From the NCBI GenBank assembly GCA_947492575.1, contig CANLNK010000002.1:127304-159303 (forward strand): a stretch of 32,000 nt of DNA. The letters run 5' to 3'. The stretch is from an uncultured Thalassotalea sp. (lineage in GTDB: Bacteria; Pseudomonadota; Gammaproteobacteria; Enterobacterales; Alteromonadaceae). The position numbers and the translations under genes were made by a program. The notes beneath the pieces are model-generated. The model saw only the letters and a program-made list of their open reading frames with translations, was not told where the DNA came from and made no database searches. The first letter of the stretch is position 1; every line of letters begins with the position of its first letter. Positions 1 through 32,000 of the stretch are shown here, in pieces.

Positions 1-120
1 TAATGCTTGTTGAACTATAGGGTAACATGTCACGTCTTTTGATTGTCTTTCAATTGAGTGCTTTGCTACTTGATAAACGACATCTTGATAAGACGTATAA
101 CCTACAAATACTTTTCTCAT
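1..120 (-). CDS. 5' end (first 40 codons) of an unidentified ORF running off the window edge
   Basis: Not in the supplied track. Hand translation of the minus strand from the ATG at 120..118 gives MRKVFVGYTSYQDVVYQVAKHSIERQSKDVTCYPIVQQAL with no stop down to base 1. An AAAGAG purine patch sits 8 nt upstream of the ATG. It is on the same strand as the rest of the cluster. Function cannot be recognised from 40 aa. Confidence 0.3.
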   Translation of the reverse strand, partial: MRKVFVGYTSYQDVVYQVAKHSIERQSKDVTCYPIVQQAL

Positions 121-267
121 TATTAATACTCTTTAATTTCCTTTTACACCGTTGTTATGTGTATTCGTTGCAATTTCAGCATGATTTTAAAAGCACGCCC
201 ACAGCACTAACTTAATTTGGATCAATACTTACGCTAACAATTTTGATTAATCCACTTCAACTAGTTG

Positions 268-933
268 CTATAAATGAAATCGTGCCATTTTCTGGTTTCT
301 TGGATGTTCCCAATCACCTATGATGTCAACTTTAAAACCAACACATGAAGCCATGTACTTAATTTCTTCAATCGAATAGTGAAATGGATCTTTATCAAAA
401 TATGTTTTTTTCTTTCCTGGATGCTGCACAATTACCTCAGTACAAACGGAAGTTGGAGCTTCAAAGAAAGTACTAAAATAACTTCCTCCAGGTTGTAAGC
501 ACTGCTTAGCATTTTTGAGGCATCTCAGTATCATATTCATCGGTAGATGCGTAAATAAAGAAACAGATAGCATGTAGTTAAATTGCTCTTCAAACAAACT
601 AAACTCAAAGCAATCGTTTACTAGTAAAGAGGGAAGTTTGTGCGTTAAACTTGCACTATCCAACTCTAGCTTTCCTGCATTAATTAATGAAGCATTAATA
701 TCTATTCCAAAGTAGTTTCCTTGTTCCAAGTAATCAACAAAATGGAGCCCACCTCTTAAACATCCGCATGCAATATCTAATAACTTATGGTTTGGTTGCA
801 AACCTTGTTTAATAAGGAATTCTATTTGCAATTGACCGATTTCATCCCACATTCCACCAACAAAATTACGATGCTCGTTTTCCTTGATTTCCGAACTTGA
901 TAATTGACGATGGTATGCATTTATATTTTTCAT
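268..933 (-). CDS. class I SAM-dependent methyltransferase (substrate unknown, probably glycan tailoring)
   Basis: 221-aa ORF with an ATG start. It has the SAM-binding motif I pattern LLDIACGCLRGG and a downstream LQPGGSYF segment, both typical of Methyltransf_11/12-like enzymes. It lies at the distal end of the glycan locus. Confidence 0.8.
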   Translation of the reverse strand: MKNINAYHRQLSSSEIKENEHRNFVGGMWDEIGQLQIEFLIKQGLQPNHKLLDIACGCLRGGLHFVDYLEQGNYFGIDINASLINAGKLELDSASLTHKLPSLLVNDCFEFSLFEEQFNYMLSVSLFTHLPMNMILRCLKNAKQCLQPGGSYFSTFFEAPTSVCTEVIVQHPGKKKTYFDKDPFHYSIEEIKYMASCVGFKVDIIGDWEHPRNQKMARFHL

Positions 934-1060
934 GAAATTCCTTAAAAATAAGCCACTCTATACGCTTCAATAAAAATGGTTGTTAGTTCAAGAGGCTAAA
1001 TACTTAGTTCTTCAGAGAGTACAAATAAATTCGTTAATTGACCGCAAGCTAAGACATTAT

Positions 1061-1690
1061 TTAAGCGTTTTTCAAGTATTGTGGATCACCATTTTTAATG
1101 ATACTTACAATTTCTTGAGTCTTAGCCGCTGATAACTCAACCCCACAAAATTTAGCTATTTCACGTACAGTATATTCTGGGTGAGTCAACGACTTTTCAT
1201 AAGAAAGCGACAATATAGGACATTCTAGCTCAGACATTACACTCAACATTCTTTTATAAGCATTAATAGAATTGTGTAATGACTCTTCGATATCAGCCTC
1301 AACAGAAATATTGTTTCGTAGCGATATTGCTAGAATATCTCTATACAATATGATCACGCGCGGGTTTCTCATCGAATGAATAACGTTCTTGATTGAGCCT
1401 CTCAACGCGGGGCATTTGTAACCCCACTTATCCCATTGAGCATTCCGTTTTTCACAGATATTAGAAAAACCTTCAAAATCTTTACTTTTTAGTAACAACT
1501 GGATTTCTTTATCTTCGTTAGTCCTAGGGGTTAGCTTTTCCCCCATCGGAATATCTAAAGCTGACAAAATTCGAGACGCCATAGTAGTACCAGACCTACC
1601 TAAACCAGTCACAGCTATAGTACTTTGCTTTTGACAAACGTCCTCATTCTTTAACCAAACTCCATTATTAATCAATTTTTTCACCTTCAA
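1061..1690 (-). CDS. sulfotransferase family protein (PAPS-dependent type)
   Basis: 209-aa ORF. VTGLGRSGTTMASRIL matches the phosphosulfate-binding loop pattern (G-x-x-R-S-G-T-T) of sulfotransferases. The track start is TTG and there is no in-frame ATG before this loop, so the exact start is uncertain (an AAGGTG patch precedes an internal TTG). Confidence 0.7.
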   Translation of the reverse strand: MKVKKLINNGVWLKNEDVCQKQSTIAVTGLGRSGTTMASRILSALDIPMGEKLTPRTNEDKEIQLLLKSKDFEGFSNICEKRNAQWDKWGYKCPALRGSIKNVIHSMRNPRVIILYRDILAISLRNNISVEADIEESLHNSINAYKRMLSVMSELECPILSLSYEKSLTHPEYTVREIAKFCGVELSAAKTQEIVSIIKNGDPQYLKNA

Positions 1691-1739
1691 CTTTGAAATT
1701 TATACAATTAAGCTCTACTACTGCCAATAATCAAGGCAC

Positions 1740-2819
1740 CTATCTGTCTAAAAGCTCTTCATCACACTCGACTTCAACTAACTCTCTAGCCGCCTTAATT
1801 GCGCCATCTTCTATATCAATTTCAACCTCACCTTTTGAGCATATTTCATGGTGATTTAGATCTAAAGTAGTCGCGTGCTTCAAAAATAATCTCATCACGT
1901 GACTAACCCCCTCTTCGACTACATTACGTAGATCATCTGCATAGTAAGACCCACGATTGTAGTTTCCAGTAATAATTTCATATGACGGAAAATAATGAAT
2001 ATTTGAATTTTTCTTGGATACAGTATCAGCTGCTACGCGTAAAACCGACTTAGAATAGGTTGTAGCACATAACACATGCGTTTCTTGCTCTGCTGTTGCC
2101 ATCAAAGGAACTGGAGAAACCGTAAGAATAATTTTAGCGTTAGGATTTACATCTAACAGTAAAATATTAAATTCATTTAAATCGTCAATTACATCCGTGA
2201 CTGTCTGGTTATAAAATTCAAATTTAGCTTCATCGAACTCCCCACCTTCTACACCAGGGCATAAAGGAAATACCGCACCATCCCTTTTATCTTTCCAACA
2301 CTCTGTTAAGCCCAGTGTAAATACAAACACATCTAAATTCATAAACATTTCTTTCACGAAACGTAAATGCTGCTGCTGTTCAAAGTACAGTTCTTCTTCA
2401 GAAATAAACCCACCTGGTTGAATATTAGGTCTGAAAGGGTCTCTAAAGCTGCCATCGCTGTGCAACCAAACTTGTTCACAAGGTTTAAACATACTAAACG
2501 CTCGTTTAAATAGTTGGAGCAATTGTCTTGATGTATACAAATTACCGTATCTAGCTGAAAAAGTCCCATAGTTAAACTCTTTCTGAACTGCTGCTGGCAA
2601 TAGAGGGTGTGCTTCTTCTGCAACGTAATAATTAAAACCTGAACTTTGTAAATGACGGGCAATGTGCTGGGCAAAGCAACTGCCTGCTGTTGCTACTTTT
2701 GTTTCCTTTTCTATCTGTAAACCAAAGCATCCAACTGGATCTACTTGCTCAGTCTGTAAAGAGGAAATCGATTTGCGCCAAAAGGCTTTGGGCGGCAACT
2801 TTTTATACGGGTGGCTCAT
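1740..2819 (-). CDS. GSCFA-family protein (SGNH-related, function unknown)
   Basis: 359-aa ORF with an ATG start. It contains the family's eponymous motif (TAGSCFAQHIARHL) near the N-terminus. The nested 106-aa ORF at 2354..2674 is an alternative-frame shadow. Confidence 0.7.
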   Translation of the reverse strand: MSHPYKKLPPKAFWRKSISSLQTEQVDPVGCFGLQIEKETKVATAGSCFAQHIARHLQSSGFNYYVAEEAHPLLPAAVQKEFNYGTFSARYGNLYTSRQLLQLFKRAFSMFKPCEQVWLHSDGSFRDPFRPNIQPGGFISEEELYFEQQQHLRFVKEMFMNLDVFVFTLGLTECWKDKRDGAVFPLCPGVEGGEFDEAKFEFYNQTVTDVIDDLNEFNILLLDVNPNAKIILTVSPVPLMATAEQETHVLCATTYSKSVLRVAADTVSKKNSNIHYFPSYEIITGNYNRGSYYADDLRNVVEEGVSHVMRLFLKHATTLDLNHHEICSKGEVEIDIEDGAIKAARELVEVECDEELLDR

Positions 2820-2824
2820 AGTGC

Positions 2825-3538
2825 TTACCTTAAACCTCTAATTTTTGATATTACTCGATGACCATAAAGGTGGTTAGCGTGTGTGGCATCTTTGTTATAG
2901 AACTCTTGCCTCAAAAAGCCCTTATCTGTAATTGTTTCCGTAGGTGGGTTTACAAAAGTCACCCCCCACTCTTCACAAAGCTCTTCTAATGCTTCCATCT
3001 CTGCTCGCCAAATGTTCAATCTTGTAAGAGGAGCGTTTAATGTCTGCTCCGTAACTATATTGTTTCTATATTTACTTGTTTGATCAGCTATAAACCCATT
3101 ACATTCCTTAGGTGGAGGGGTAGCTAAGTGATACAGTCGGCATTTGACAGCTTTTCGAATGGATGAAATGGTTTTGTTTTTTTTCATCTGCTCTTTAAAA
3201 ATCTGTTTCATAGCTGCGTAAGGAAGCACTAAAGCCTCGTTATCAGGAAGTATTTGGCTTTGTCTAGAAAATAAAGTGTAAGGCATACTATGTCTTACCA
3301 ATCCCAATATATTATGACCTGTCCCCAATATAGAGATTACAACCATGTCATTTGAGTTCAATTGAGAAGCTTTTTTCTGGAAATCTTCTAACGATAAATT
3401 ACCAGTCGTTTTTCCTTTTTTTTCAACTTTAATCCAACGTATTTCAATTGGACTTTCATCACAATAATTATCATCCTCAAGCGCTAGCTTCAAAGACTTA
3501 GTATGGCTATCACCAAAAATTAATATTTTTGTACCCAT
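2825..3538 (-). CDS. SGNH/GDSL-type hydrolase or acyl-esterase
   Basis: 237-aa ORF whose ATG overlaps the upstream stop (TAATG). It has N-terminal KILIFGDSHTKS (block I G-D-S) and C-terminal DATHAN (block V D-x-x-H). Confidence 0.6.
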   Translation of the reverse strand: MGTKILIFGDSHTKSLKLALEDDNYCDESPIEIRWIKVEKKGKTTGNLSLEDFQKKASQLNSNDMVVISILGTGHNILGLVRHSMPYTLFSRQSQILPDNEALVLPYAAMKQIFKEQMKKNKTISSIRKAVKCRLYHLATPPPKECNGFIADQTSKYRNNIVTEQTLNAPLTRLNIWRAEMEALEELCEEWGVTFVNPPTETITDKGFLRQEFYNKDATHANHLYGHRVISKIRGLR

Positions 3539-4677
3539 TATTGCCCCATCAACCCTTTTTCTTTAAGTTCGGCGTTTGCTTTATCTAACTTGTCCTCTGG
3601 CAACGGCTGGGTATTTACCCAATCAACGAATCTAGTCAACCCTTGCATTAAAGACACCTGAGGCTCATAACCCAATAAGTTTCTTAGTTTATTAATATCC
3701 GCTCGATTATGACGAATATCGCCGAGACGGTATTGCCCAGTCACTTTTATATCTGGATCTTTACCAAACGCCTCTGTAAGCTTAGAAGCAATATCAACGA
3801 CTGTGGTCAACTCACCCGTCCCCACATTAATCACTGTATTTGGCGCATTTTCTGCGGTTAAGGCCGCTAAGAAGGCATTGGCGACATCTTCAACATGCAC
3901 AAAGTCTCTCGTTTCTTCGCCATCCTCAAAAATAGGAAGTTGTAAGTCACGTCGAATTCGAGTTGAAAAGATAGACAAAATACCCGTATATGGATTATTT
4001 AGAGACTGCCCTTCACCATACACGTTTTGCAGTCTCAGAATACCGTAACCTATACCGAGAGACTCACAACAAATAGAAATTAGATCTTCTTGCGCATATT
4101 TTGTTGATGCGTAAATTGAAGCTGGCTGAATATTGTCACTTTCTCTAGTTGGCACGGATGTTAGCGTATGGCCACACACATTGCAGGGTGCTGTCCACTG
4201 TTGGTTGGCTAACTGTTCTGGTTTGCGAGCAGTCGGATAGTGTCTAACTTCATCGTTACACACTTCACAAATATACGCACCCTCGCCGTATACAGAACGA
4301 CTTGAAGCTAACAAAACTCTCTTAAGCTTCAGCTTTTTATTGGTTATGATATCTAGTATTAGGGCGGTCGCTTGAGTATTAACTTCATTGTACTTTTCAA
4401 TTTCATACATTGATTGACCAGTACCTGTTTCAGCCGCTAAATGAATAAGACTGTCACATTCAGACAAGCATGATTCAAGAACTCCTCTATCTGTCACACT
4501 TCCATGAACAAAGTTAATACCACACTCTTCAACCCAGCTTGGCGTTTTGGGAGTGTCACCATGTATCTGTGGGGAAAGGTTATCTAATATTGTGACACTA
4601 TAATTATTTGCTACTAATAAAGGGCACAAGTGGCTACCAATAAAACCTGCACCACCCGTAACTAATATTCTATTCAT
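3538..4677 (-). CDS. NAD-dependent sugar epimerase/dehydratase (extended SDR) with a Cys4 insertion
   Basis: 379-aa ORF. It has the Rossmann motif VTGGAGFIGSHL and the catalytic Y-x-x-x-K in IYASTKYAQE. An insertion carries C137-x2-C140 and C165-x2-C168. The exact reaction cannot be assigned. Confidence 0.85.
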   Translation of the reverse strand: MNRILVTGGAGFIGSHLCPLLVANNYSVTILDNLSPQIHGDTPKTPSWVEECGINFVHGSVTDRGVLESCLSECDSLIHLAAETGTGQSMYEIEKYNEVNTQATALILDIITNKKLKLKRVLLASSRSVYGEGAYICEVCNDEVRHYPTARKPEQLANQQWTAPCNVCGHTLTSVPTRESDNIQPASIYASTKYAQEDLISICCESLGIGYGILRLQNVYGEGQSLNNPYTGILSIFSTRIRRDLQLPIFEDGEETRDFVHVEDVANAFLAALTAENAPNTVINVGTGELTTVVDIASKLTEAFGKDPDIKVTGQYRLGDIRHNRADINKLRNLLGYEPQVSLMQGLTRFVDWVNTQPLPEDKLDKANAELKEKGLMGQ

Positions 4678-4744: not shown

Positions 4745-6958
4745 TTACTCATCTATCCCAACTCTATAGTTATCTGCTTTATTGAGCATACCTAAAACTT
4801 GTTGTTCTAGCTTTTTTAGAGAATATGTATGCTGCAATTTCATTTGCGCATTTTTAACCATATCAAATCGCGCTTTAGGGTTTTCAATTAAGTGACTTAA
4901 ATGTTCAAGCCACTCTTGCGTAGAAGAGGCTAATAGACCACAGTCGTCACTGCAACATTCGTCATAAACGGTGCCTTTAGATGCCACTACTGCCGCACCT
5001 ACCGATGAATACTCGACCCACTTAGTATTGGCTTTCATCATATTGAAATGGATAGGGGTAAGCGGGCAAATTCCGATGTCCCAGTTGCGCTTGCTAAACT
5101 CCTGTAAGAAATTATTGTAATTCTTTACGGGGGGACTCACGTTAACACGAGTACTGTATACCTTCAGCTTTTCAGGTACTGGAATAGAGCCAAAAAACTC
5201 AACTTCTACGTCAGGATACTTCGCTAAAATATCTATTAGCGCTGGCAGTACGACATCTAAGTTATGTGCGTGATCAGCGCTGGCCATGTAACCAATTTTT
5301 TGTGTCGGCTTGTCTTCTGCTAGCTTAATTAAACTGCCTGAACAATAAATGTCTCCATTTTCAACCGGAGACTTTACACCTAATTCAGTTAAACGGGCTT
5401 TTAACTTAACGGTTGAGCAATAAACGAGATCGGTATTATTCAACAGATAATACACAGAGCTAAGCCTATCTTGCTGATTATGGTGTCTGTATTTTTTCTC
5501 GCCTATGTCTTTAGGAATAGTCAATAAATCATCATCAATATGATAAATAGTGGTAACATTATTTCTCTTCGCCCAATTAACCACGTTAAAATACTGAGGT
5601 CCGCTGTAACGGCAAAAGACTATGGTAGTCGGCTGAAACGAATTGAGTCGTCTTTCAAGCCAATATGTGACGTCAGCCTCTTCCAAGTTGACACCAAATT
5701 GCTCTCTTAAATGTACTTCTGAAATAAATTCAAAGTCGATGTCATTGTTACTTTTCAAGTTAGCCAAAGGCTTAATAAAGCTCAGCTGTAAAGTGGGCAC
5801 ATAATCGTTAGCAATAAAGACCACTTTGGGTTTAATGGCCGCCCCTTTTGATAAGTCGGTTTGTAAACCCTGAACATTGGTGTTGTTTTGAAAAGAAGAA
5901 AACAGTCGCACAAACCCACTATGGACTTGGCTAGCTTGATGAGGCATATCTAATTCAGATAAGAATTCATTTTGCCTCTCTATAAAGTACTCAGGCTCTT
6001 TATTTGCTCTGTCAGCAAAGGCTAACCAGTCCTCTACTGAGCTTATCGCAGTTAACCCTGAGTAATTATCTGCATCCATCAAACTACCACTATCGCGCCA
6101 TACTGCCGTGGGTATACCTGCCAATACCATATCGATTAATACTGAAGATGGTGCTGAAATACCATAACTATATTGACGCAAATCCAGCTTATACATGGGC
6201 TGATTATTAAGTTCAACATTATTGGGCAACATGACGTTATTTTTCACTACATATTGGCCGCCAGGGTGTGGACGTAGCGTGACTTGTTGTCCGTTACTCT
6301 CCTGTCGTCTGCAAAAGTCAGTAAAAGTATCAATAAATGACATCTTAAAGTCACCCGATGCACTTAGCCTAACCGAGTGTAAATTCTCGCAAACTAAGCC
6401 TCGCCCAAGCTTATTGACTGGTTGAACATTGGGTATTTGCAATACTTGAGATGGACCAGTTACCAACAGCTTATGTCGCTGAGACGGCAATAGAGAACTC
6501 ATATGTTTAGTGTCGTACCAGCCACATACTATATCTGCCCCAAAGCTAACATTAGTACCATGCGCCTTGTCGTGTTCACGGCTTTGTCGGAATCCAACAC
6601 ATTCAAAACCGTGTTGCAATGTCACGCGGGTAAAGTTTTTCGGAGCACACAAAAATAACTGATGAGTTGGAGAATGCGCACCTAAGTTTGATTCACTACC
6701 AGCAATCAAAAAGCCATGTTTATTGTTCAATACTTGCACAGCTTGGTAGCTCTTTTCAAATCGGTACACTAAGCTCTGGGTTTGTTGTGCTATTTGATAA
6801 ATTTCTCTCAGCCAGAGGCCTGATTTATCACGTTCAACAAATTTAGCCGTTACAAGAAATTCAGTATTAAAACCTAAGTCCTTAGACGCCAAAAAGACTA
6901 AAGGTCTAAGAACATTCACATCCTGTAATAAATTAATAATAAAAATAGCCGATTTCAT
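4745..6958 (-). CDS. two-domain putative glycosyl/phosphoglycosyl transferase (both halves GT-B-like)
   Basis: 737-aa ORF. The N-terminal half has TLQHGFECVGF (aa 112-122) and LLVTGPSQ (aa 164-171). By eye these resemble the WHG ... G-Y-P-R pair of TagF-type transferases. The C-terminal half (from about aa 375) has a GT1/GT4-like layout (IGYMASADHAHNLDVVLPALIDILAKYPDVEVEFFG ... KWVEYSSVGAAVVAS). This is a fold-level call only. Confidence 0.5.
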   Translation of the reverse strand: MKSAIFIINLLQDVNVLRPLVFLASKDLGFNTEFLVTAKFVERDKSGLWLREIYQIAQQTQSLVYRFEKSYQAVQVLNNKHGFLIAGSESNLGAHSPTHQLFLCAPKNFTRVTLQHGFECVGFRQSREHDKAHGTNVSFGADIVCGWYDTKHMSSLLPSQRHKLLVTGPSQVLQIPNVQPVNKLGRGLVCENLHSVRLSASGDFKMSFIDTFTDFCRRQESNGQQVTLRPHPGGQYVVKNNVMLPNNVELNNQPMYKLDLRQYSYGISAPSSVLIDMVLAGIPTAVWRDSGSLMDADNYSGLTAISSVEDWLAFADRANKEPEYFIERQNEFLSELDMPHQASQVHSGFVRLFSSFQNNTNVQGLQTDLSKGAAIKPKVVFIANDYVPTLQLSFIKPLANLKSNNDIDFEFISEVHLREQFGVNLEEADVTYWLERRLNSFQPTTIVFCRYSGPQYFNVVNWAKRNNVTTIYHIDDDLLTIPKDIGEKKYRHHNQQDRLSSVYYLLNNTDLVYCSTVKLKARLTELGVKSPVENGDIYCSGSLIKLAEDKPTQKIGYMASADHAHNLDVVLPALIDILAKYPDVEVEFFGSIPVPEKLKVYSTRVNVSPPVKNYNNFLQEFSKRNWDIGICPLTPIHFNMMKANTKWVEYSSVGAAVVASKGTVYDECCSDDCGLLASSTQEWLEHLSHLIENPKARFDMVKNAQMKLQHTYSLKKLEQQVLGMLNKADNYRVGIDE

Positions 6959-13807: not shown

Positions 13808-13825
13808 GATTATTTAATTAATTGT

Positions 13826-25341: not shown

Positions 25342-25371
25342 AATTTACAACCATAAAAGCCTAAAAGTCAA
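25342..25371 (-). promoter_or_regulatory. candidate sigma70 promoter for the surface-protein gene
   Basis: The minus strand reads TTGACT (25371..25366), an 18-nt spacer, then TAAATT (25347..25342). This would give a 5' UTR of about 125 nt. It is the best match I found by eye in the 386-bp intergenic region and has no other support. Confidence 0.3.
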
Positions 25372-25596
25372 CAGCCCAAATCAAACTTTGTTAATAAAAA
25401 TAAGATATTGGTTGAATTTTACGCACCCTTTAATTTTAGAGAAAGTTATCTCCAACTGTACCCTTAAAATCTATCGACTAGGGTTTAACTTAAATTTGTT
25501 TCAGTTTTTTTAAAATGTCTGAATTAGTATAGTGTGCAATGAAAATATCACACGCTATTTCACATTCTTACTGGCTGTAAAGCCGCTTATTTAGCC

Positions 25597-27672
25597 TTAT
25601 TCATTAATGATATTTAGACCACTAAGCGACTGCTGGAATGAGGACATGATCCCACTCCATTGCTCACTTCTAGAAATTACTTTTGGTGTCACCAACAGCA
25701 CCAACTCTGTTTTTGAGAAGGAGTCACTCTTCGACTTAAATAAATTCCCTAAAACAGGAATGTCGCCAAGTAATGGGATTTTGTTATCTACGACTGATTT
25801 ATTTTCATCTATCAATCCTCCCAATATTATTGTTTGGCCACTTTCTGCTACTACCGCCGTTGCCAAGTTACGTTCATATATGTTTGGATTTCCTGTACTG
25901 CCTGACGCCGATGACTCGACTTCATTACTGATAGATTCAGTTATATCCATGATGACAACGCCTTGAGCATTGATAGTCGGAGTGACTGAGACCTTAATGC
26001 CAGTTTGACGATAAGAAGTAGATGTGGTCTGCCTATCATTTTCACCAAACCCGTCTGTAACTGAATCTGTTACAGATATTTGCTCACCAACTTCTAAGGT
26101 CGCCGTGACTCCATCTCTAACCAAGAGGCTAGGGTTAGACAAAATTTTAACGTTTGTGTTGCCTTGTGAAAAAGCTGCACTGACGGTATCACTAAAGCCA
26201 TTGGTTAAAGAAAAGCTGAAGCCACCATCAGAGGCACTTACGTCTCCAATTGTCCCTCCACTAAAACGGCCATTTTCGAGAGCCCATTTAACACCGTACT
26301 TGAAGTCATCAGTTAGCGTAACTTCCGCGACCACTATATCAAGCATTACTTGCTTAGGAAGAACGTCTAATCGGTTAACTAAAGGGATGATATTTCTGTA
26401 CTCAGTTCCAGTTGTATAAAATATCAATGCGTTTGAGCGCTCATCTACCACAAACGTCAATTCAGTATTAGAAGCACCGGTCACTTTTTTAGCTTTCACT
26501 AAATTTGACGTGCTTTTTCCATTTGAATCACTAGTACTAACTGCAAGTTGACTGTTAGCGCTTTTAATTGCTTGAGTTCTTGCGGAAATCAGTGGAGTAA
26601 GGCTTTCGCCAATATCTGCTGCTCTTGCATATTTTGGATGATAAACGTAATACCGCTTTACATCACCTTGCGGTGGCTTATCGAGCGTTTTTGTCCAAAA
26701 CTTAACTCGATCCATAAGCTCCTTTGTAGCTGAAAAAACTGCTACTGCACCAATTTGCATTAATGGTACGAAAACCAAGTTATTATTTTGTGGATCATTT
26801 ATGCTATTCGGAATTCCTTCCGTATCTAAAAGTGCTTGTAATTGCTGAAGGTAAATATCAGGAGATGAATACACTAACTTAACTAGCCCTACATATCGCC
26901 CTCTATTTGCCGGAGAATCTAATAATTGAATTAATTCAACAGCTCTTGCTACATTAGTGTAGTTACCACGTATAAACAAAGCACTTTGTTTCACATCTAA
27001 ATTGACTTTAACGTCTGCTAATTCCTGAACAGTGTTTTTAAGTGAGGTTTTAATGCCGTATAAGATAGGCATTACATGAAGTATGCTTCTTCCTCGCTCT
27101 ACTGAACTTACTTCTCGCCCCATACTGACGATAGTTGATGATTTGCTCTTGGGATCAAGCTTGTTAAGCATGAAGGTGTTATTTTCATGTTTAAGCTGAA
27201 TGTTTCTCTGTGCAAAAATTTGTTCTGTCAGCTGGAATAGCTCTTTCTTTGAAACCGCTTTATTCAGGTTTAATGTCACAACTTCTTTGCTATTGGCTAT
27301 GTTAGGCGCAAGCACGTAGTTAGCCTGCAACAGCTCACCAAACGTATAATGAATGAAATCAGCCAAAGGCATTTTGTTTGCTTTGACAGTTGCGACTTCT
27401 TCATCAGGAAACAAGCTTGATAACTGTGTAGACTCAAACTGAACAAGCCCTCTTTTCATTGCTTGTAATCTAGTAAACGGCCTATCTTTACTTTGCTCTT
27501 CGACATCACCAGCTGCATCGCTATCTAATAAAACATCGTCCCCACTTTCCTTTAAATAAGAAGTTTCCAACGAATGAACTTGGTTCTCTGCTTTATCATC
27601 AATACTCGCGCAACCGCTCAAGACTGTTAATAAACAAACTGAAACTAAACTAACTTTAAATTTGACCATCAC
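25597..27672 (-). CDS. gspD: secretin (GspD/MshL-type outer-membrane channel) with N-terminal lipobox
   Basis: 691 aa. The canonical secretin C-domain is present (ILGGLIDENKSVVDNKIPLLGDIPVLGNLFKSKSDSFSKTELVLLVTPKVI), preceded by N-domain-like repeats. The signal peptide ends in the lipobox L-S-G-C (VCLLTVLSGCAS). The track start is GTG and the ATG one codon inside is more likely. Confidence 0.92.
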   Translation of the reverse strand: MMVKFKVSLVSVCLLTVLSGCASIDDKAENQVHSLETSYLKESGDDVLLDSDAAGDVEEQSKDRPFTRLQAMKRGLVQFESTQLSSLFPDEEVATVKANKMPLADFIHYTFGELLQANYVLAPNIANSKEVVTLNLNKAVSKKELFQLTEQIFAQRNIQLKHENNTFMLNKLDPKSKSSTIVSMGREVSSVERGRSILHVMPILYGIKTSLKNTVQELADVKVNLDVKQSALFIRGNYTNVARAVELIQLLDSPANRGRYVGLVKLVYSSPDIYLQQLQALLDTEGIPNSINDPQNNNLVFVPLMQIGAVAVFSATKELMDRVKFWTKTLDKPPQGDVKRYYVYHPKYARAADIGESLTPLISARTQAIKSANSQLAVSTSDSNGKSTSNLVKAKKVTGASNTELTFVVDERSNALIFYTTGTEYRNIIPLVNRLDVLPKQVMLDIVVAEVTLTDDFKYGVKWALENGRFSGGTIGDVSASDGGFSFSLTNGFSDTVSAAFSQGNTNVKILSNPSLLVRDGVTATLEVGEQISVTDSVTDGFGENDRQTTSTSYRQTGIKVSVTPTINAQGVVIMDITESISNEVESSASGSTGNPNIYERNLATAVVAESGQTIILGGLIDENKSVVDNKIPLLGDIPVLGNLFKSKSDSFSKTELVLLVTPKVISRSEQWSGIMSSFQQSLSGLNIINE

Positions 27673-27684: not shown

Positions 27685-28248
27685 TTAAGACTTACTTTTC
27701 AAAAACAACTGCAGTGAGATTATTCTATCACCATCAGCAAGTTCTATATGATTATTCTCTATTATCTGTACTGTATAATTATCAAGCTTTTCTTGAGTAA
27801 CTAATTTGATTGACTTAATAACGCCAGATACTAAGTGTCTTTCGCTGAGTAAGGCAAACTTATTGCCGTTTTCATCAAAAATAGCGGTAAGTGAATACTC
27901 CTTTTCTCCACTAAAAAAGTTCTTCTTTGCCCCTTTTTGCTTGTTTTGCTCTTCAAGCGACATAATTTGAACTTTGGGTTTTGAAGGTTTGTTCTGTTTA
28001 GCTTTTGGTTTTGGCTTCTCAAATCTTTCAAGTGCTTCGTCTACTTTTTTAAGTTCGTCTTTCATTAGAAATTTGATTTGTGGTTTATTTTGAACACCTT
28101 CAGACACTAATGCAGATAATTTTATTTCATCACTAGTTAATCGTGACGAAAAATCAATCAAAGCAAGTAAAAAGCTCGCGACTAATAATATGGAAAGAGA
28201 AGTTTTATTCACTAGTATTCTCCTCTTTATATTTTCTCCATACTGCAA
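27685..28248 (-). CDS. bitopic secretion-system component, GspC/PilP-like (TM anchor, Lys/Pro linker, small beta domain)
   Basis: It has an N-terminal TM segment (SLSILLVASFLLALI), a basic KPKPKAKQNKPSKPK linker, and a C-terminal ~70-aa beta-rich segment (YSLTAIFDENGNKFALLSE...IELADGDRIISLQL) resembling GspC-HR/PilP domains. It sits directly before the secretin. The likely true start is the GTG at 28212, which has AAGAGGAG 7 nt upstream and overlaps the upstream stop. The track's ATG at 28248 would overlap the upstream gene by 44 nt. Confidence 0.45.
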   Translation of the reverse strand: MQYGENIKRRILVNKTSLSILLVASFLLALIDFSSRLTSDEIKLSALVSEGVQNKPQIKFLMKDELKKVDEALERFEKPKPKAKQNKPSKPKVQIMSLEEQNKQKGAKKNFFSGEKEYSLTAIFDENGNKFALLSERHLVSGVIKSIKLVTQEKLDNYTVQIIENNHIELADGDRIISLQLFLKSKS

Positions 28249-28789
28249 AAGTAATTTTGCCAGACACTCTTCCTAGCCTCATACTTGAGGCCCTCATTCT
28301 CGACACATTCAAAGTGTAGTTAGCTAGTGCAACTTTAGGTTTTAAACTCTCCGCTACCAGCAACCCTTTCATTAGCTGTTTAAAACTGCCAGTTACTGTC
28401 ATCTCCATCATCTGCTCTTCGTAACCACTTTTTTGCACTGGCGTTAACCAGCTAGTTCGAGATACAGATAACCCATGCTTTACAAACAATTCCTCTATCG
28501 CCTCTTGATGCCCTAGTCTAAATTGAACTTCGTCATCTGACGTTGTAAAAAGTAGCGCATCGTACTCTATTACTTCCTGCTCTATAGTGCCTATAGTCGA
28601 TAACATTTTATCTTGGTTTAATAGCAAGCGTTCTGTTTTCAATAGACGCTCCTGCAATTTGGCTATTGAGGCCACTTTACTTTCTTGCCACTCCAAAAGA
28701 GGCGCCACAGCAAATTTAATGGCAGCCAAAAAGAGAATAACGCCGAGCATGAGAGGCTTGTTATTTAGTAGTTCTCTCATCTTAGCCAA
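28205..28789 (-). CDS. bitopic secretion-system component, GspM/PilO/MshJ-like
   Basis: About 190 aa with one N-terminal TM segment (PLMLGVILFLAAIKFAVAPLL), then a coiled segment (IAKLQERLLKTERLLLNQ) and an alpha/beta C-terminal domain. The position between the L-like and C-like genes fits this role. The track start is TTG. The ATG at 28780 (MRELL...), 1 nt after the upstream stop, is more likely. Confidence 0.5.
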   Translation of the reverse strand: MAKMRELLNNKPLMLGVILFLAAIKFAVAPLLEWQESKVASIAKLQERLLKTERLLLNQDKMLSTIGTIEQEVIEYDALLFTTSDDEVQFRLGHQEAIEELFVKHGLSVSRTSWLTPVQKSGYEEQMMEMTVTGSFKQLMKGLLVAESLKPKVALANYTLNVSRMRASSMRLGRVSGKITFAVWRKYKEENTSE

Positions 28790-29891
28790 CCACCAGTGTA
28801 ATTTTCACCGTAAATAATTCCTTTCCACCGGACTTTACAGCTGGAGAAACAATTTCAGGGTTTTCAAGCGCACTAGAAGTCGCCAGGAAATGCATAATAT
28901 CTGTTGATTTAGAGGCTTTCATTCTCAACGTTATGTCGCTTCCTGAAAAATTAACTAGAGATACATCAGCCCCTTTGTCGGCAAGCTCAGTAATTAATAA
29001 CCAAAGGGGAGCACTTAATTGTTCGAATAGTGGATTATTGGCTAACCCTTCTAACTGAGCATTCATATTTTCCAACTGGCCTTGCTTCGCGAAAAGCTCA
29101 TTGATAGAGGATTGCTGCTTCGCTAATTGAGAAGACAGTGTATTCTCCTTCAAAATCAGATAGCCACTTGCTATCGACATGTAAGAAGCAAAGAAAACAG
29201 CTAAAGAGATTGCTGAAGTTTTTATAAAACGAGGTGACCAAAAGCTCTTAAGTAATGGCAGGTTTAAAGCCTGACTATACGAACCGCTTGGCAACAACGT
29301 AACACTTTTTAGCAATAGCATTATGTATTCGCCTTGCTCAAAATTCTGTACCTCTGCGCCGCTCTGAACAGCTGAAAAAAATCCACTTTCTTTCGTACTC
29401 ATTAAGCTCAATAGTTCGCAGCTAAAGCCATCCTTAGAAAACTCCCCATGAATAAGCCGTTCTCGAAAAGAGCCGCTAATTGAATTTGGTACAGTTTGCT
29501 TGTTTAACCTTAAGAACAACAAATAACTTTCAGGAAGAATGAACAATGAATCTCGACATTGTTCATCGATAAAGGTTTGTTTGATAACGAAAAAGTAAAC
29601 TCTAGTTTTGCCACCATCAATAGATGAAGCGGCGGTGTAGATCTGGCCAGCAAAAGGGGCTACATCCTTCATATGCTTAGCGGCAAGTAAGGCCTCTTTC
29701 TTTGAGGAAATCGGTAAGTCTTTATGGGTTTCGAATGTATGTTCTTTACCCACAATAGTAAGTAAGGCTTTAGATTCAGAAACACCTTGTAGGCCTTTAA
29801 CCCCCTTACCTTCTAAGTCTAATACATATGACTCAGCACCGTGAAACCGACAACGGTTCGCCAAAAGTTTTATCATCGCTGACAAGTGCAC
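28782..29891 (-). CDS. GspL-like / PilM-PilN-fusion-like (MshI-like) inner-membrane assembly protein
   Basis: 369 aa. It has a cytoplasmic domain of about 220 aa, a single TM segment (AISLAVFFASYMSIASGYLIL), a coiled segment (QLAKQQSSINELFAKQGQLENMNAQLEGL), and a small periplasmic domain. The GTG start has GAGG 5 nt upstream. Confidence 0.5.
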   Translation of the reverse strand: MHLSAMIKLLANRCRFHGAESYVLDLEGKGVKGLQGVSESKALLTIVGKEHTFETHKDLPISSKKEALLAAKHMKDVAPFAGQIYTAASSIDGGKTRVYFFVIKQTFIDEQCRDSLFILPESYLLFLRLNKQTVPNSISGSFRERLIHGEFSKDGFSCELLSLMSTKESGFFSAVQSGAEVQNFEQGEYIMLLLKSVTLLPSGSYSQALNLPLLKSFWSPRFIKTSAISLAVFFASYMSIASGYLILKENTLSSQLAKQQSSINELFAKQGQLENMNAQLEGLANNPLFEQLSAPLWLLITELADKGADVSLVNFSGSDITLRMKASKSTDIMHFLATSSALENPEIVSPAVKSGGKELFTVKITLVVG

Positions 29892-30010
29892 TTTTCCCTC
29901 AAAATAAACAGCCGAAGGGCATTATCCATAGTTTCTTAAGTTAATACAATCTGGTATTCGCTTGAATGTGTTGCAAATAATTTAGGTTAAGTAATTATCC
30001 CATCCATTTT

Positions 30011-30886
30011 TTACATTCGAGAGAGGATAACAAATGGCGTCACCGAATTTTGATTTTGGATTTTTACTAAAGTAACTTGCTCCAGGAATACTGTACCAAC
30101 GCTTACTTTTATAATCACTTGATGAAGCGTACCAGGGTTAAAGTCTATTGATTCAAACGTCTGGCCACCAACAAGCTTCGTCCAGTCCTGTTCGGTAAAG
30201 CTGTTGCCGCTGTTGCTATTTACAACAAGTGCTTCTGCCACACTTTCCCCAAACAAAGCAGTATTTAACTCTTTTGAAGAGTAGGCAGGGTTGAATGACT
30301 GCGTTGCATAAATTGTGACAAATTGGCTAAATTTTTGAACGACACTGTCACTCACTCCTTTGATGGCGGCAAGCTCGCTAATATGCTGCAAAGGCCCATT
30401 CCTTGGCTTAGTATTGCCCGAGTATGAAGCCAACTCTGCTCCTTGTCGCCTTGTAACATTATCAGCATCTATCCAATCCATAATGCTATCATATGTAGCA
30501 GTCAACTCATCTTCTTGGACACCGCTGAGTAGCAAAGCTCTCTTAATATAGAGTTCGGGTGCTGTTAATAATGAAAGTCGACCGGATAAAGGGTTAATTT
30601 CAACGATGGTGTAGTCATTTAGCTTAAAAGCCTTAGCTAAATACCAATTGACCTCGTTAATGTTCATACCATTAATCTGATGAGAATCCATTCTAAAAAG
30701 CTCTGCTAATACATTCGACTCTGCTGATTTTAAAAGTAACTCAGCTTGGGCTCGATCATCAAATCCCTGTGCGATCCCAACATTACTTCGTGCCGTTTTA
30801 GATATTTGGATGGCGATAACCGATATCAGAGTTGTTAGCAACAGCACCTGGATAAGAGCTAGCCCGTCCTCTTTAAAAACTTTCAC
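30011..30886 (-). CDS. gspK: GspK-like minor pseudopilin
   Basis: 291 aa. The hydrophobic N-terminus GLALIQVLLLTTLISVIAIQ, the central IMDWIDADNVTRRQGAELASY and ISELAAIKGVS match the conserved GspK blocks (DW-x-D-x-D ... GAE ... EL-x-x-[VI]-x-G[VI]). The GTG start overlaps the end of the upstream gene. Confidence 0.7.
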   Translation of the reverse strand: MKVFKEDGLALIQVLLLTTLISVIAIQISKTARSNVGIAQGFDDRAQAELLLKSAESNVLAELFRMDSHQINGMNINEVNWYLAKAFKLNDYTIVEINPLSGRLSLLTAPELYIKRALLLSGVQEDELTATYDSIMDWIDADNVTRRQGAELASYSGNTKPRNGPLQHISELAAIKGVSDSVVQKFSQFVTIYATQSFNPAYSSKELNTALFGESVAEALVVNSNSGNSFTEQDWTKLVGGQTFESIDFNPGTLHQVIIKVSVGTVFLEQVTLVKIQNQNSVTPFVILSRM

Positions 30887-31541
30887 TAAATTGCACCATC
30901 ACTCGAGAATCAAATTCGGTTAATTTGACTTGGAGATTTTGTTCTTTACCTGACAGGCCTAATTTCACGCTCAACCGTTCGGGCATTATATTTCGATTTA
31001 GGGCATTGAAAGATGTCCACCAACGCTTGGGGCTAACGTTATTCTTTTCATCAATGTTTTCAAAACCAAAATAGCTGAACTGAACGTAATCAAGTTGTTC
31101 AATTAAAACCACTTTTTTTGAAAAAGTTCTGCGTTGAGACAAGTGTGTAAAAGCCTCACCTACTTTTGCAGGGTGTTCCTCATAAATCAATTGATAACTA
31201 AAGTCTTCCGCTTGATTGATAGAAAGGCGAAAGATTGTCGGTAAGCCACCACTAAAGAGTGAGCGCGTACTTACAGCCACTAGACCTTCATCATCGCCCT
31301 CAAAGAAAATGATAGGGTTATTTTCTTCATCCCTGATAATGAAGGGGTAAATACCTTCTATCAAACGCTTAGCCATAATCAGAGATTTTGTATTTTTAGC
31401 AGAGGCGTCAAAATTTCCCAACTCATTACCCCATCGTTGCATAAAAAAAGAGTATCCTTGAGTCATTATGATTAATGTAAAACTCATAATCGCTAACGCT
31501 ACTAGCAGCTCTACCAAAGAGAAACCTCTGTTTCTTACCAT
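30873..31541 (-). CDS. gspJ: GspJ-like minor pseudopilin (prepilin-type N-terminal cleavage/methylation domain)
   Basis: 222 aa. Its N-terminus MVRNRGFSLVELLVALAIMSF is a class III signal (G|F-S-L-V-E). Size and position before the K-like gene fit GspJ. Its ATG overlaps the upstream stop (ATGGTAA). Confidence 0.7.
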   Translation of the reverse strand: MVRNRGFSLVELLVALAIMSFTLIIMTQGYSFFMQRWGNELGNFDASAKNTKSLIMAKRLIEGIYPFIIRDEENNPIIFFEGDDEGLVAVSTRSLFSGGLPTIFRLSINQAEDFSYQLIYEEHPAKVGEAFTHLSQRRTFSKKVVLIEQLDYVQFSYFGFENIDEKNNVSPKRWWTSFNALNRNIMPERLSVKLGLSGKEQNLQVKLTEFDSRVMVQFSESF

Positions 31542-31954
31542 GAGATATCCTCATATTGGTATTCTCTAGAGCGTCCCTTTACTGTTACGCTAAAAGAAAC
31601 TTGCCATTTCTTCAGCCTATGTTCTGCTTGACTTATCTCAGCACCAACAAATCTTACCGGAGGCTTTATAGTCTCTATAACACGAGCTTCCCAGAAATAC
31701 GTCCCTTCGAGTAATTCGCCTTTTCCTGATAAAGAGTTTTGAGCTTTATTTGACGCGATTTCGCTTGAGATCTCACTTGTTACTAACGTAGCAATGGAAG
31801 AGGTTAAAAGTGCACTTTCCGCTTTTGTGTTTGCGATAATGGCACCACGGAAAACAAGTGTAAATACACTTAAACTTATGAATGCAATGAGAGCCGCGAC
31901 AAGCACCTCTATTAGCGTAAAGCCAGATGAGTTTTTTCTATTGTACGTAATCAT
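31535..31954 (-). CDS. gspI: GspI-like (or small GspH-like) minor pseudopilin
   Basis: 139 aa. NSSGFTLIEVLVAALIAFISL is a prepilin cleavage/methylation motif (G|F-T-L-I-E). Size and position fit GspI. Confidence 0.65.
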   Translation of the reverse strand: MITYNRKNSSGFTLIEVLVAALIAFISLSVFTLVFRGAIIANTKAESALLTSSIATLVTSEISSEIASNKAQNSLSGKGELLEGTYFWEARVIETIKPPVRFVGAEISQAEHRLKKWQVSFSVTVKGRSREYQYEDISW

Positions 31955-32000
31955 CTAACACTACTTTAGTAAATTTATCTTGATAGCTTATTGTGAAGTG
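31938..32000 (-). CDS. 3' end of an upstream ORF (last 20 codons), probably another pseudopilin gene
   Basis: Not in the track. Hand translation of the minus strand from base 32000 gives HFTISYQDKFTKVVLDDYVQ followed by TAG at 31940..31938, overlapping the next gene's start by 17 nt. The identity is inferred from operon context only. Confidence 0.25.
   Translation of the reverse strand, partial: HFTISYQDKFTKVVLDDYVQ

Follow-up and report, generated by a model that had tools for sequence, protein, structure and literature searches.

Slr4 of Pseudoalteromonas tunicata D2, described in 2020, is a protein of the surface layer (S-layer), is the most abundant protein of the culture and forms a p4 lattice by transmission electron microscopy; an slr4 deletion mutant loses this lattice, and a type II secretion system (T2SS) operon, conserved in other species, lies immediately upstream of the gene (PMC7821379). 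The protein was found to run near its predicted mass, with 93% peptide coverage and no sign of heavy modification (PMC7821379). The synteny of slr4 and T2SS genes is repeated in the AnnoView paper, and the 'Molassodon' K-locus of Vibrio parahaemolyticus carries slr4, a T2SS and an ATP-binding cassette (ABC)-transporter-dependent glycan pathway together, with Slr4 abundant and gone upon slr4 deletion (bioRxiv 10.1101/2025.06.27.661923). None of these reports (PMC7821379, the AnnoView paper and bioRxiv 10.1101/2025.06.27.661923) mentions glycosylation, a gene for a tetratricopeptide repeat (TPR) protein or for a glycosyltransferase of the GT-C class, or an anchor; how Slr4 is anchored was left open in the founding paper, in which the region 3' of slr4 is not discussed (PMC7821379). 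Here, we describe an slr4 gene and its neighbors in a 32,000-nt stretch of DNA (the window) from an uncultured Thalassotalea sp. (assembly GCA_947492575.1, contig CANLNK010000002.1, positions 127,304 to 159,303), in which slr4 stands between T2SS-like genes and a long block of glycan genes.

The island is a member of the published system, and its basic classification is unchanged by our analysis. The central inference of a first-pass annotation, made by a model from the letters of the window, is therefore right yet not new, as slr4 with a dedicated T2SS was published in 2020, and the statement in it that no characterized system has this gene set is wrong for the core, which had been reported for P. 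tunicata (PMC7821379). New beyond the literature are the covariation of Slr4 with glycan-gene content, an Slr4-linked GT-C/TPR protein that resembles the eukaryotic TMTC O-mannosyltransferases and has GacI/J-like partners, and a motif in the slr4 leader. The S-layer proteins of Aeromonas (VapA/AhsA) reportedly depend on S-layer-specific T2SS homologues (SpsD/ApsE) and on tethering by O-antigen. As far as is known, each Gram-negative S-layer that has been studied (Caulobacter RsaA, Aeromonas VapA and Campylobacter fetus SapA) is tethered via a specific lipopolysaccharide (LPS) O-antigen. The type of the S-layer protein matches that of the glycan for the SapA and LPS types of C. fetus and for RsaA and O-antigen in Caulobacter. 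The Slr4 system resembles these in having a dedicated exporter, and a specific glycan anchor with matched protein and glycan types would be a further likeness. It differs in that the Slr4 family is unrelated, in that RsaA and SapA use a type I secretion system, and in that the anchoring of Slr4 by a glycan is what we infer.

Secretion genes, slr4 and glycan genes in one orientation

Proteins of the window were scanned against Pfam and NCBIfam profiles. Twenty-seven open reading frames (ORFs) of at least 139 aa tile the window (GC content ~0.38), all on the minus strand, and the plus-strand ORFs are short and nested within these 27 genes. At 18 of the 26 gene junctions, adjacent reading frames overlap or have no more than 18 nt between them; the wider intergenic gaps are of 386 nt 5' and 84 nt 3' of slr4, with others of 119, 116, 96, 67, 49 and 127 nt. 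In minus-strand order from 5' to 3', the genes specify two pseudopilins, GspK, GspL-like and GspM-like proteins, a 187-aa bitopic protein, a secretin and Slr4 (431 aa). These are followed by GT-C/TPR, a DegT-family protein, a formyltransferase, GT56, Wzx, Wzm, Wzt, RmlA, RmlC, RmlD and RmlB, and then by a 1386-aa giant protein, a 498-aa protein, a 737-aa glycosyltransferase (GT), a short-chain dehydrogenase/reductase (SDR), a 237-aa protein, a GSCFA protein, a sulfotransferase and a methyltransferase. The glycan genes 3' of slr4 span ~24 kb. By this approach, the co-oriented supercluster that had been proposed, running from secretion genes through a stand-alone secreted-protein gene to about 24 kb of glycan genes, was verified in gene order by the Pfam and NCBIfam matches. 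An Rfam scan of the window detected no known RNA family. The 32-kb island is an Slr4-type S-layer locus fused head-to-tail to a variable surface-polysaccharide locus, and the profile matches described below identify it, with high confidence, as a locus of Slr4 with its T2SS.

The slr4 gene (23915..25210, minus strand) encodes a 431-aa precursor of an Slr4-family S-layer protein. The match to PF19526 (E=3e-74; 250.9 bits against a cut-off of 25) extends from residue 59 to 427 and covers the whole model (positions 1-370 of 370). At the N-terminus there is a Sec-type signal sequence, MFKKTLIAAAVATTASFGAAAS, and the protein is acidic, devoid of Cys and 12.8% in Thr, with a DADGDGELGGDDDG stretch; the conserved C-terminal core of the family (AGxWTLNG and others) is present. 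Among named homologues, that of Thalassotalea euphylliae is the nearest (75% identity). Codon bias of slr4 is extreme, with an effective number of codons of 30.9 compared to 46.1-59.0 for the other 26 genes. A promoter-like site, TTGACT-18-TAAATT (25371..25342, minus strand), was found by sequence scan 5' of the gene, and an intrinsic terminator with a 12-bp stem (5 GC pairs), a 4-nt loop and a T-run (23869..23896, minus strand) follows it as the top-ranked terminator-like site within 12500-32000. With a promoter and terminator of its own, slr4 is transcriptionally separate from its neighbors and is predicted to be monocistronic with strong expression signals. Thus, the assignment of the 431-aa protein as an S-layer protein and the description of its gene as stand-alone and highly expressed both held: the Pfam match is full-length, a divergent dedicated T2SS lies directly in front and a glycan locus follows.

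The T2SS-like genes upstream of slr4 (all on the minus strand) begin with a 139-aa GspI-like minor pseudopilin (31535..31954; Pfam N_methyl E=2.4e-6, with weak XpsI and GspI NCBIfam matches below cut-off) and a 222-aa minor pseudopilin (30873..31541; N_methyl E=4e-7, TIGR02532 above cut-off) that overlaps the upstream gene by 7 nt. Next are a 291-aa GspK-like minor pseudopilin (30011..30886; PF21687 T2SSK_1st E=1e-15, NF037980 at 81 bits below the cut-off of 130) and a 369-aa protein (28782..29891) that is free of family matches in the profile scans and has a single transmembrane (TM) helix at 228-246; this protein is taken as GspL-like from its position between gspK and gspM and is 50% identical to the product of the same-position gene of T. 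euphylliae. A 194-aa GspM-like protein (28205..28789) has an N-terminal TM helix and scores below cut-off against PF10741 (E=9e-4) and NF040576 (E=1e-6), and a 187-aa bitopic protein (27685..28248) with an N-terminal TM helix and no Pfam or NCBIfam match occupies the GspC/GspN position and is conserved there in a few loci. The last gene of the set encodes a 691-aa GspD-like secretin with a lipoprotein signal (25597..27672; PF00263 E=2.4e-43, PF03958, and TIGR02517 at 288 bits below the cut-off of 351) and ends 386 nt upstream of slr4. Its lipobox, LSGC at residues 18-21, agrees with the earlier call of a liposecretin. Taken together, PF00263, PF03958, PF07963 (twice) and PF21687 were detected, with GspM as a weak match and GspL a positional assignment. 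The scores of all components fall below the NCBIfam equivalog cut-offs, which marks the set as a divergent paralogue and not as the housekeeping Gsp system. The right edge of the window cuts this operon such that the window holds its distal half, from minor pseudopilins to secretin; in the closest relative, T. euphylliae GCA_003390375.1 (locus L065), GspE, F and G are encoded directly upstream of these genes.

Compared to P. tunicata D2, the window shares PF19526, a Sec signal, an upstream T2SS that ends in the secretin, very high expression and a marine Alteromonadales host. It differs in that Slr4 is of 431 and not 578 aa, and in that the genes that follow are a TMTC-like GT-C/TPR operon and those of a glycan pathway with an ABC transporter. 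Neither glycan genes nor glycosylation are a subject of the 2020 paper. Like the window, the V. parahaemolyticus K-locus combines slr4 and a T2SS dedicated to it with an ABC-transporter glycan pathway at a single surface-antigen locus; the preprint text makes no mention of a GT-C/TPR gene, a formamido-sugar module or glycosylation. The 147 aa by which the window protein is shorter than P. tunicata Slr4, together with the ~25% identity of its subclade to the long type, could suggest a protein that has only the Slr4 fold in common with the family and, instead of forming a lattice in this organism, is secreted in abundance as a matrix component or adhesin; Slr4 is additionally shed to the biofilm matrix, and a lattice has so far not been observed for V. 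parahaemolyticus Slr4 (bioRxiv 10.1101/2025.06.27.661923). This explanation is very unlikely, as the Pfam match (251 bits) is full-length, the C-terminal core is conserved, the dedicated T2SS context is the same, codon bias is extreme, and the leader motif is shared.

Covariation of Slr4 with the glycan genes 3' of slr4

An alignment of 18 Slr4 sequences was used to retrieve 62 loci with 10-kb flanks from species-representative genomes (the unbiased set); L063-L065 are loci outside this set. Secretin and pseudopilin homologues were detected upstream of slr4, and co-oriented with it, in 56 of the 62 loci, which corresponds to 56 of the 58 that have upstream DNA. Four of the six loci without an upstream secretin end at a contig edge, and the other two, L035 and L046, are contigs of metagenome-assembled genomes (MAGs) without secretin. 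To examine the region 3' of slr4, 461 ORFs were clustered and the cluster representatives annotated by Pfam. Co-oriented polysaccharide genes were found 3' of slr4 in nearly all loci, with variable content. One downstream type has Wzx with a nitroreductase and a pyruvyl-transferase; another has sulfotransferases and a flippase, mostly with a long (510-580 aa) Slr4; a further type has DegT, an acetyltransferase, GT56 and Wzx; and in another GT-C/TPR comes first and is followed by various clusters. GT-C/TPR was detected in 13 of the 62 loci, immediately 3' of slr4 in 12 and 8 kb away in one, and a DegT homologue in 9 of the 62. With 13 loci only, GT-C/TPR is not universal. Thus, of the synteny that had been predicted with the 431-aa protein as bait, the upstream half (a secretin operon) held in 56 of the 58 informative loci, and the downstream half (always a GT-C/TPR plus aminotransferase operon) failed. 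In L065, T2SS genes from E, F and G to D are followed by slr4, GT-C/TPR, degT, fmt and GT56, and the L065 secretin and RmlB are 82% and 80% identical to those of the window.

When 72 Slr4 sequences were arranged by the unweighted pair group method with arithmetic mean (UPGMA), those with the same downstream type grouped together irrespective of genus. Pairwise identity of Slr4 correlated with the Jaccard similarity of the downstream gene families (r=0.42 for 50 loci), and this correlation was r=0.36 for pairs from different genera; none of 2000 label permutations reached either value. Cross-genus sharing of families was threefold higher at an Slr4 identity of 35% or more than below it (0.16 vs 0.054), and same-genus pairs with Slr4 less than 35% identical shared few downstream families (0.135). 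The covariation was strongest in Slr4 residues 311-431 (r=0.49) and was ~0.2 for the N-terminal half. Thus, the type of Slr4 tracks the set of adjacent glycan genes across genera, most closely in the last 120 residues of the protein, which is a lead towards a glycan as anchor and towards a candidate domain for its binding. Cassettes also differ within a single species name: T. euphylliae KCTC 42743 (L049) and L065 have wholly different T2SS-slr4-glycan cassettes, and the window secretin is 37% identical to that of L049 and 82% to that of L065, with values of 25% and 75% for Slr4. Since the two T. euphylliae cassettes differ entirely, the whole module behaves like a serotype locus.

Several observations on individual loci stand apart from these comparisons. 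L035 (from a MAG labelled Phenylobacterium) and L046 (from an Alteromonadaceae MAG) are the only Slr4 homologues with 10 kb of upstream sequence and no detectable T2SS or glycan neighbors; these exceptions could reflect mis-binning, relocation of the gene or another export route. In Pseudidiomarina, tandem divergent slr4 paralogues lie behind a single T2SS operon (three copies each in L015, L024 and L028, four in L051), an array that could serve antigenic variation of the S-layer or a multi-component lattice. A polysaccharide pyruvyl-transferase beside a nitroreductase and Wzx was found in ~14 loci (L009, L013, L021, L022, L027, L028, L032, L038, L041, L044, L045, L052, L053 and L057), and one to three sulfotransferases near slr4 in ~16 loci (L007, L012, L014, L017, L019, L023, L026, L036, L037, L039, L042, L048, L049, L055, L056 and L058). 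Genes for anionic groups are thus very common just 3' of slr4 as raw counts, taken without background rates. The Alkalimonas loci have a CysD-like gene, so named from its sequence only.

The GT-C/TPR protein and a proposed role of the glycan

The gene immediately 3' of slr4 (22055..23830, minus strand) encodes a 591-aa putative GT-C glycosyltransferase, TMTC-like by its motifs, topology and AlphaFold2 model, with a C-terminal TPR domain predicted to be periplasmic. The model has a mean predicted local distance difference test (pLDDT) score of 91.7 over the full length and 92.5 over the N-terminal domain (residues 1-403). Helices of the model and hydropathy indicate 11 TM helices with a cytoplasmic N-terminus, and TPR Pfam matches cover residues 421-571; this predicted topology places the loop with the Asp-Asp (DD) motif in the periplasm, together with the TPR domain. 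No variation at D29-D30 was seen among 45 homologues, and HPxxQxAV and K192-Q-N motifs are also present. The earlier designation of the protein as GT-C/TPR is well founded in this DD motif, the 11 TM helices and the periplasmic TPR domain. Foldseek comparison of the N-terminal domain retrieved ArnT (5f15; probability 0.99, TM-score 0.49), Pmt4 (probability 0.95) and EmbA-EmbB (7bvf), and otherwise meaningless matches; a structure search with the full-length model returned TPR proteins only, and a search of the PDB with the sequence of the N-terminal domain gave nothing informative. TMTC O-mannosyltransferases likewise have 11 TM helices and a luminal TPR domain, with ArnT as best template (PMC7801869). 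The likeness to TMTC1-4 includes the cytoplasmic N-terminus, a DD motif that is strictly kept and lies in the first of the external loops, the motifs HPxxT/QxAV and K-E/Q, a TPR domain that is C-terminal and on the side of the active site, and ArnT as the closest solved fold (PMC7801869). It is a likeness of motifs and topology; unlike TMTC1-4, the putative donor of GT-C/TPR is a bacterial polyprenyl-linked sugar. GT-C/TPR was also considered as a Wzy polymerase or WaaL ligase and rejected as such, since the WaaL fold match was poor (TM-score 0.30, root-mean-square deviation 18.7) and the DD, HP and K motifs with GT2-DUF2304 partners point to a transferase of undecaprenyl phosphate (Und-P)-linked monosaccharides. 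A role as oligosaccharyltransferase is possible.

Genomic context links GT-C/TPR to Slr4 and to a candidate donor synthase. All close homologues with checkable context are encoded on Slr4 contigs, down to 31-32% identity (Shewanella halifaxensis, Saliniradius); distant homologues without Slr4 occur in Arhodomonas and Beggiatoa. A GT2 and DUF2304 pair was found in L001, L007, L050, L063 and L065, each of which has GT-C/TPR, and is located beside GT-C/TPR homologues in six loci when L066 is included; no locus without GT-C/TPR has the pair. In the unbiased set this amounts to 3 of 13 GT-C/TPR loci compared to 0 of 49 others (p ~0.008, hand calculation). Arhodomonas has a GT2-DUF2304-GT-C/TPR operon in the absence of Slr4. 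The best NCBIfam matches of the partner GT2 are PpgS, AglJ, PgfS, dolichyl-P-hexose transferase and ArnC (E=3e-12), all below cut-offs. In streptococci, GacJ is a DUF2304-family protein that activates the Und-P-GlcNAc synthase GacI, GacK of the Wzx family is the proposed flippase of the lipid-linked sugar, and the GT-C enzyme GacL adds the sugar to ABC-exported polyrhamnose (bioRxiv 10.1101/180810). The GT2-DUF2304-Wzx order of L065 and L001 is that of gacI-gacJ-gacK, and L065 has GT2-DUF2304, Wzx, GT-C and the rml genes, with no Wzm/Wzt seen in the 10 kb downstream of slr4. Genes for Wzm/Wzt within 10 kb of slr4 were found only in GT-C/TPR loci. The GacI/J/K/L system of Streptococcus pyogenes and the window have in common rml genes, an ABC transporter for a polymer built in the cytoplasm, a Wzx-family flippase and a putative GT-C enzyme that would act outside the membrane, with GT2-DUF2304 present in relatives of the window; they differ in that GacL lacks a TPR domain, the window lacks GT2-DUF2304, the host is Gram-negative, and the sugar is probably Qui4NFo (4-formamido-4,6-dideoxyglucose) and not GlcNAc. 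The Arn pathway follows a comparable course, from aminotransferase and N-formyltransferase to an Und-P-formamido-sugar, its flipping and its transfer by a GT-C enzyme (ArnB, ArnA, ArnC, ArnE/F and ArnT), and is unlike the window in using a uridine diphosphate (UDP)-pentose where the window would use a deoxythymidine diphosphate (dTDP)-6-deoxyhexose; in addition, the window has no deformylase, its GT-C carries a TPR domain, and the acceptor is unlikely to be lipid A.

Other TPR proteins occur beside slr4. In loci without GT-C/TPR the slr4 neighbor is often another TPR protein: a 634-aa soluble TPR protein with an unassigned C-terminal domain in L017, L023, L026 and L058, and a 560-580-aa TPR-sulfotransferase fusion in L036, L037 and L049.

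We propose that Slr4 would be carried by Sec across the inner membrane, fold in the periplasm, be exported by the dedicated T2SS and crystallize on the outer membrane, and that the 24-kb block would make a matching cell-surface glycan, with RmlABCD supplying dTDP-rhamnose. Soluble GTs, the 1386-aa giant among them, would build a cytoplasmic polymer, probably rhamnose-containing, sulfated and methylated, that Wzm/Wzt would export. From the translationally coupled GT-C/TPR-degT-fmt-GT56-wzx genes, dTDP-Qui4NFo would be made, loaded on a polyprenyl carrier and flipped, and GT-C/TPR would transfer the flipped sugar in the periplasm by the logic of GacI/J/K/L side-chain addition and of the Arn pathway. 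Such periplasmic decoration by GT-C/TPR with a polyprenyl-linked donor is more likely than not. The finished anionic glycan would then be the most likely anchor or receptor of the acidic, probably Ca2+-binding lattice. That the glycan serves as the S-layer anchor has, in our judgment, a chance slightly below even; it gains indirect support from the covariation of Slr4 type with glycan-gene content, and of the two models put forward in the first-pass annotation (anchor and protein glycosylation) it is the better supported.

Several points weigh against this proposal. The covariation could arise from physical linkage and transfer of cassettes only, and the weaker correlation of the N-terminal half of Slr4 may reflect poorer alignment and its noise. 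A lattice has been seen only for the long, 578-aa Slr4 of P. tunicata, such that lattice formation by the 431-aa protein is a prediction from its genes. The fold matches of the modeled GT-C domain are weak (E-values of about 0.05-1.4), and DUF1736, the Pfam signature of the TMTC loop, gave no match at E<=0.01 in GT-C/TPR; for both reasons we call the protein TMTC-like and not a TMTC. The window has no GT2 and DUF2304 pair that could act as synthase of an Und-P-sugar donor, nor were genes for an initiating WecA/WbaP, for WaaL or for KpsCSDE found in it, although these may lie elsewhere in the genome. The structure of the glycan, its sulfation and its attachment to lipid A-core or another carrier are deduced from gene content. 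In addition, the absence of a carbohydrate-binding module (CBM) from Wzt argues against export gated by a chain terminator.

In an alternative reading, GT-C/TPR would O-glycosylate Slr4 itself while the protein is in the periplasm, after its translocation by Sec and before its export by the T2SS, with Und-P-Qui4NFo or a short Wzx-flipped glycan on undecaprenyl diphosphate as donor and with the TPR domain reading folded Slr4 as TMTCs read cadherin domains. Within the unbiased set, 12 of the 13 GT-C loci have GT-C/TPR as the gene that comes first behind the slr4 terminator, and so do the window, L064 and L065; its position is fixed while the genes behind it vary (degT/GT56/wzx, rml with wzm/wzt, and others), and it thus behaves as part of the slr4 module. 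Also in favor of this alternative, the nearest homologues with checkable context are all on Slr4 contigs, the DD loop and TPR domain would be periplasmic, where T2SS substrates fold, the motifs and topology are TMTC-like (one source names homologues 'protein O-mannosyl-transferase'), and the GT2 partner resembles PgfS and AglJ of protein glycosylation. By contrast, the gene is present in only 13 of 62 Slr4 loci and is therefore not needed for the function of the family; the Ser plus Thr fraction of GT-C-linked Slr4 proteins is 0.211 compared to 0.208 for others, with no Ser/Thr column specific to the group; and the near-predicted mass and 93% peptide coverage of P. tunicata Slr4 come from a locus type without GT-C/TPR. 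Furthermore, the best-studied GT2/DUF2304/Wzx/GT-C system, GacIJKL, decorates a polysaccharide, the GT-C/TPR family also occurs without Slr4 (Arhodomonas, Beggiatoa), and GT-C/TPR co-occurs with ABC-transporter pathways. On balance we regard glycosylation of Slr4 as rather unlikely. Stated for the family, it is doubtful that in about one-fifth of Slr4 lineages a TMTC-like GT-C/TPR modifies Slr4 with a formamido or other polyprenyl-linked sugar before T2SS export. If true, Gammaproteobacteria would have in it their first example of an S-layer that is both glycosylated and exported by a T2SS, and a large bacterial TMTC-like family would gain its first function, as a prokaryotic counterpart of cadherin O-mannosylation. 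Whatever its acceptor, GT-C/TPR, fixed beside slr4 in a subset of lineages, offers a tractable bacterial model for a family with disease-linked eukaryotic O-mannosyltransferases.

The association might instead be mere juxtaposition, in which the T2SS-slr4 genes lie beside, or are inserted in, a hypervariable O-antigen or capsule locus without functional dependence and GT-C/TPR only decorates the polysaccharide. The V. parahaemolyticus block lies inside a K-locus and is thought to be imported (bioRxiv 10.1101/2025.06.27.661923), and the downstream glycan content is as variable as that of a serotype locus. The separate transcription of slr4 from its own promoter to its own terminator would fit as well. 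If an S-layer protein must match its glycan, covariation of the two is expected, and co-transfer of the cassette alone would give the same. However, the layout is kept across at least 15 genera and to ~25% Slr4 identity, in the same orientation and with immediate adjacency, and the covariation is also found between genera and resides mostly in one part of Slr4; the Gram-negative S-layers known to us, moreover, are tethered via a specific LPS O-antigen. Juxtaposition without dependence is thus improbable, and the glycan as anchor of the lattice is the reading that we prefer.

The slr4 leader and the glycan genes of the window

The promoter and 5' leader of slr4 (25211..25425, minus strand) are conserved. 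The proximal ~213 nt of the upstream region, comprising the promoter-like site and a leader of ~125 nt, are 93% identical to the corresponding region of T. euphylliae L065 (9787-9999); by comparison, identity of the Slr4 proteins is no more than 75%, and in its distal half the spacer is unalignable between the two. The untranslated region folds somewhat better than shuffled sequences (z=-2.4), and the leader had no Rfam match. Directly 5' of the start codon is a 24-nt element, TTCAATTTCATGAAATTGGAGAAA (25215..25238, minus strand), which we term the slr4 box and which consists of a perfect 14-nt palindrome followed by a Shine-Dalgarno sequence. Of 66 sources, 23 have the box, with up to four mismatches, directly 5' of slr4; they represent at least 10 genera, whose Slr4 proteins are only ~25-30% identical. 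Besides the window, these sources are L001, L002, L009-L011, L013, L015, L020, L021, L024, L028, L029, L034, L043-L045, L047, L050-L052, L064 and L065. In L009 and L010 the center of the box is CTAG instead of CATG, and the palindrome is kept. An exact 20-mer of the box was detected in 48 metagenome contigs, and an ORF matching the Slr4 hidden Markov model starts 4-10 nt downstream in 41 of 47 usable cases. This 20-nt leader motif is thus almost diagnostic for slr4 in metagenomes. The box could enhance translation or bind a regulator, and the motif may be an expression or regulatory element of a protein that ranks among the most abundant in marine biofilm bacteria.

The genes behind GT-C/TPR (all on the minus strand) are consistent with a formamido-sugar module. 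A 363-aa DegT-family sugar aminotransferase (20967..22058; PF01041 E=6e-84) is encoded with a 4-nt overlap with the GT-C/TPR gene. Its best NCBIfam matches are dTDP-4-keto-6-deoxyglucose aminotransferases, all below equivalog cut-offs (DesI at 244 bits compared to 650); with a match at family level only, the configuration at C4 is tentative. The product of the next gene, of 242 aa (20242..20970), matches dTDP-4-amino-4,6-dideoxyglucose N-formyltransferase above cut-off (NF005755, 275.9 bits vs 238) together with PF00551 and PF18216, which confirms the formamido-sugar module of the earlier annotation. Thus, for a pathway to dTDP-Qui4NFo, RmlA, RmlB and the formyltransferase were found above equivalog cut-offs and the aminotransferase at family level. 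A 349-aa GT56 (WecF-like) glycosyltransferase (19196..20245; PF07429 E=4e-27, NF002756 at 192 bits below cut-off) and a 474-aa Wzx/MOP-family flippase (17771..19195; NF007773 at 332 bits above the cut-off of 273, PF13440 E=2e-64), whose gene abuts that of GT56, complete the set.

The export genes that follow encode a 263-aa Wzm-like ABC-2 permease with at least five TM helices (16863..17654; PF01061 E=2e-7, above cut-off) and a 243-aa Wzt-like ATPase (16132..16863; PF00005, TagH/Wzt-like below cut-offs). At 243 aa, Wzt would have no room for a C-terminal carbohydrate-binding domain. The two export routes that had been proposed are thus both represented, by the flippase and by the permease with its ATPase. 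No Wzy_C or O-antigen-ligase family match was found in the window, and the polytopic candidates are only GT-C/TPR, Wzx and Wzm; since no other multi-TM protein of Wzy-like or WaaL-like type is encoded, Wzx most likely serves the GT-C enzyme and not a separate O-unit pathway. rmlA, rmlC, rmlD and rmlB (12728..16142) match TIGR01207, TIGR01221, TIGR01214 and TIGR01181, all above cut-offs, and constitute the dTDP-L-rhamnose pathway, which is also a source of the 4-keto-6-deoxyglucose precursor. PF01061 and PF00005, with soluble GT-containing proteins encoded downstream, are consistent with an ABC-transporter-dependent polysaccharide. The slg clusters of Geobacillus and Paenibacillus and the WbdD/WbbB systems share with the window the rml genes, Wzm/Wzt, WsaF/RgpF-related multidomain GTs, a methyltransferase and a long coiled coil. 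The likeness to slg clusters drawn in the earlier annotation nonetheless fails on the defining type of oligosaccharyltransferase, as no Wzy_C/PglL-type (WsaB) family match was found in the window; the S-layer family, the T2SS route and a Wzt without CBM are further differences.

The 1386-aa multidomain protein (8471..12631, minus strand) is laid out as an N-terminal sulfotransferase, a coiled coil of ~280 residues, repeats of the FDxxWY type and a C-terminal GT-like region. Of the sulfotransferase-coiled-coil giant that had been described, the coiled coil stood, with an SMC-like match at residues 298-576, and homologues carry PF13469; the protein's own Sulfotransfer_3 (PF13469) match, at 26.6 bits, falls just short of the cut-off of 27. 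Its homologues are giant GT2/GT4/WsaF/RgpF proteins, many of them with PF13469. From this layout, the protein is plausibly a polymerase, chain-length ruler or terminator of the WbdD/WbbB kind; that its sulfotransferase domain might be a chain terminator read by Wzt is speculation. The 498-aa protein (6975..8471, minus strand) is soluble, with no TM helix and no Pfam, NCBIfam or PDB match, and the 737-aa protein (4745..6958, minus strand) has a C-terminal GT1-like domain (PF13524 E=1.2e-5, 25.7 bits vs a cut-off of 25); PDB searches with the sequences of these two and of the giant gave nothing informative.

The remaining genes (all on the minus strand) are for a 379-aa SDR-family NAD-dependent sugar epimerase or dehydratase (3538..4677; PF01370 E=1e-47, NCBIfam matches all below cut-offs), a 237-aa protein (2825..3538) with no family match and an N-terminal GDSH motif that suggests an SGNH-type fold, a 359-aa GSCFA-family protein (1740..2819; PF08885 E=7e-54), a 209-aa sulfotransferase (1061..1690; PF13469 E=2e-11, PF00685 E=1e-5) and a 221-aa S-adenosylmethionine-dependent methyltransferase (268..933; PF08242, PF13649 and PF08241, all above cut-offs). 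In a collection of 15 billion proteins clustered at 90% identity, the 1386-aa protein is filed under a 56-aa YacG gyrase-inhibitor representative, which is most likely a clustering artefact.

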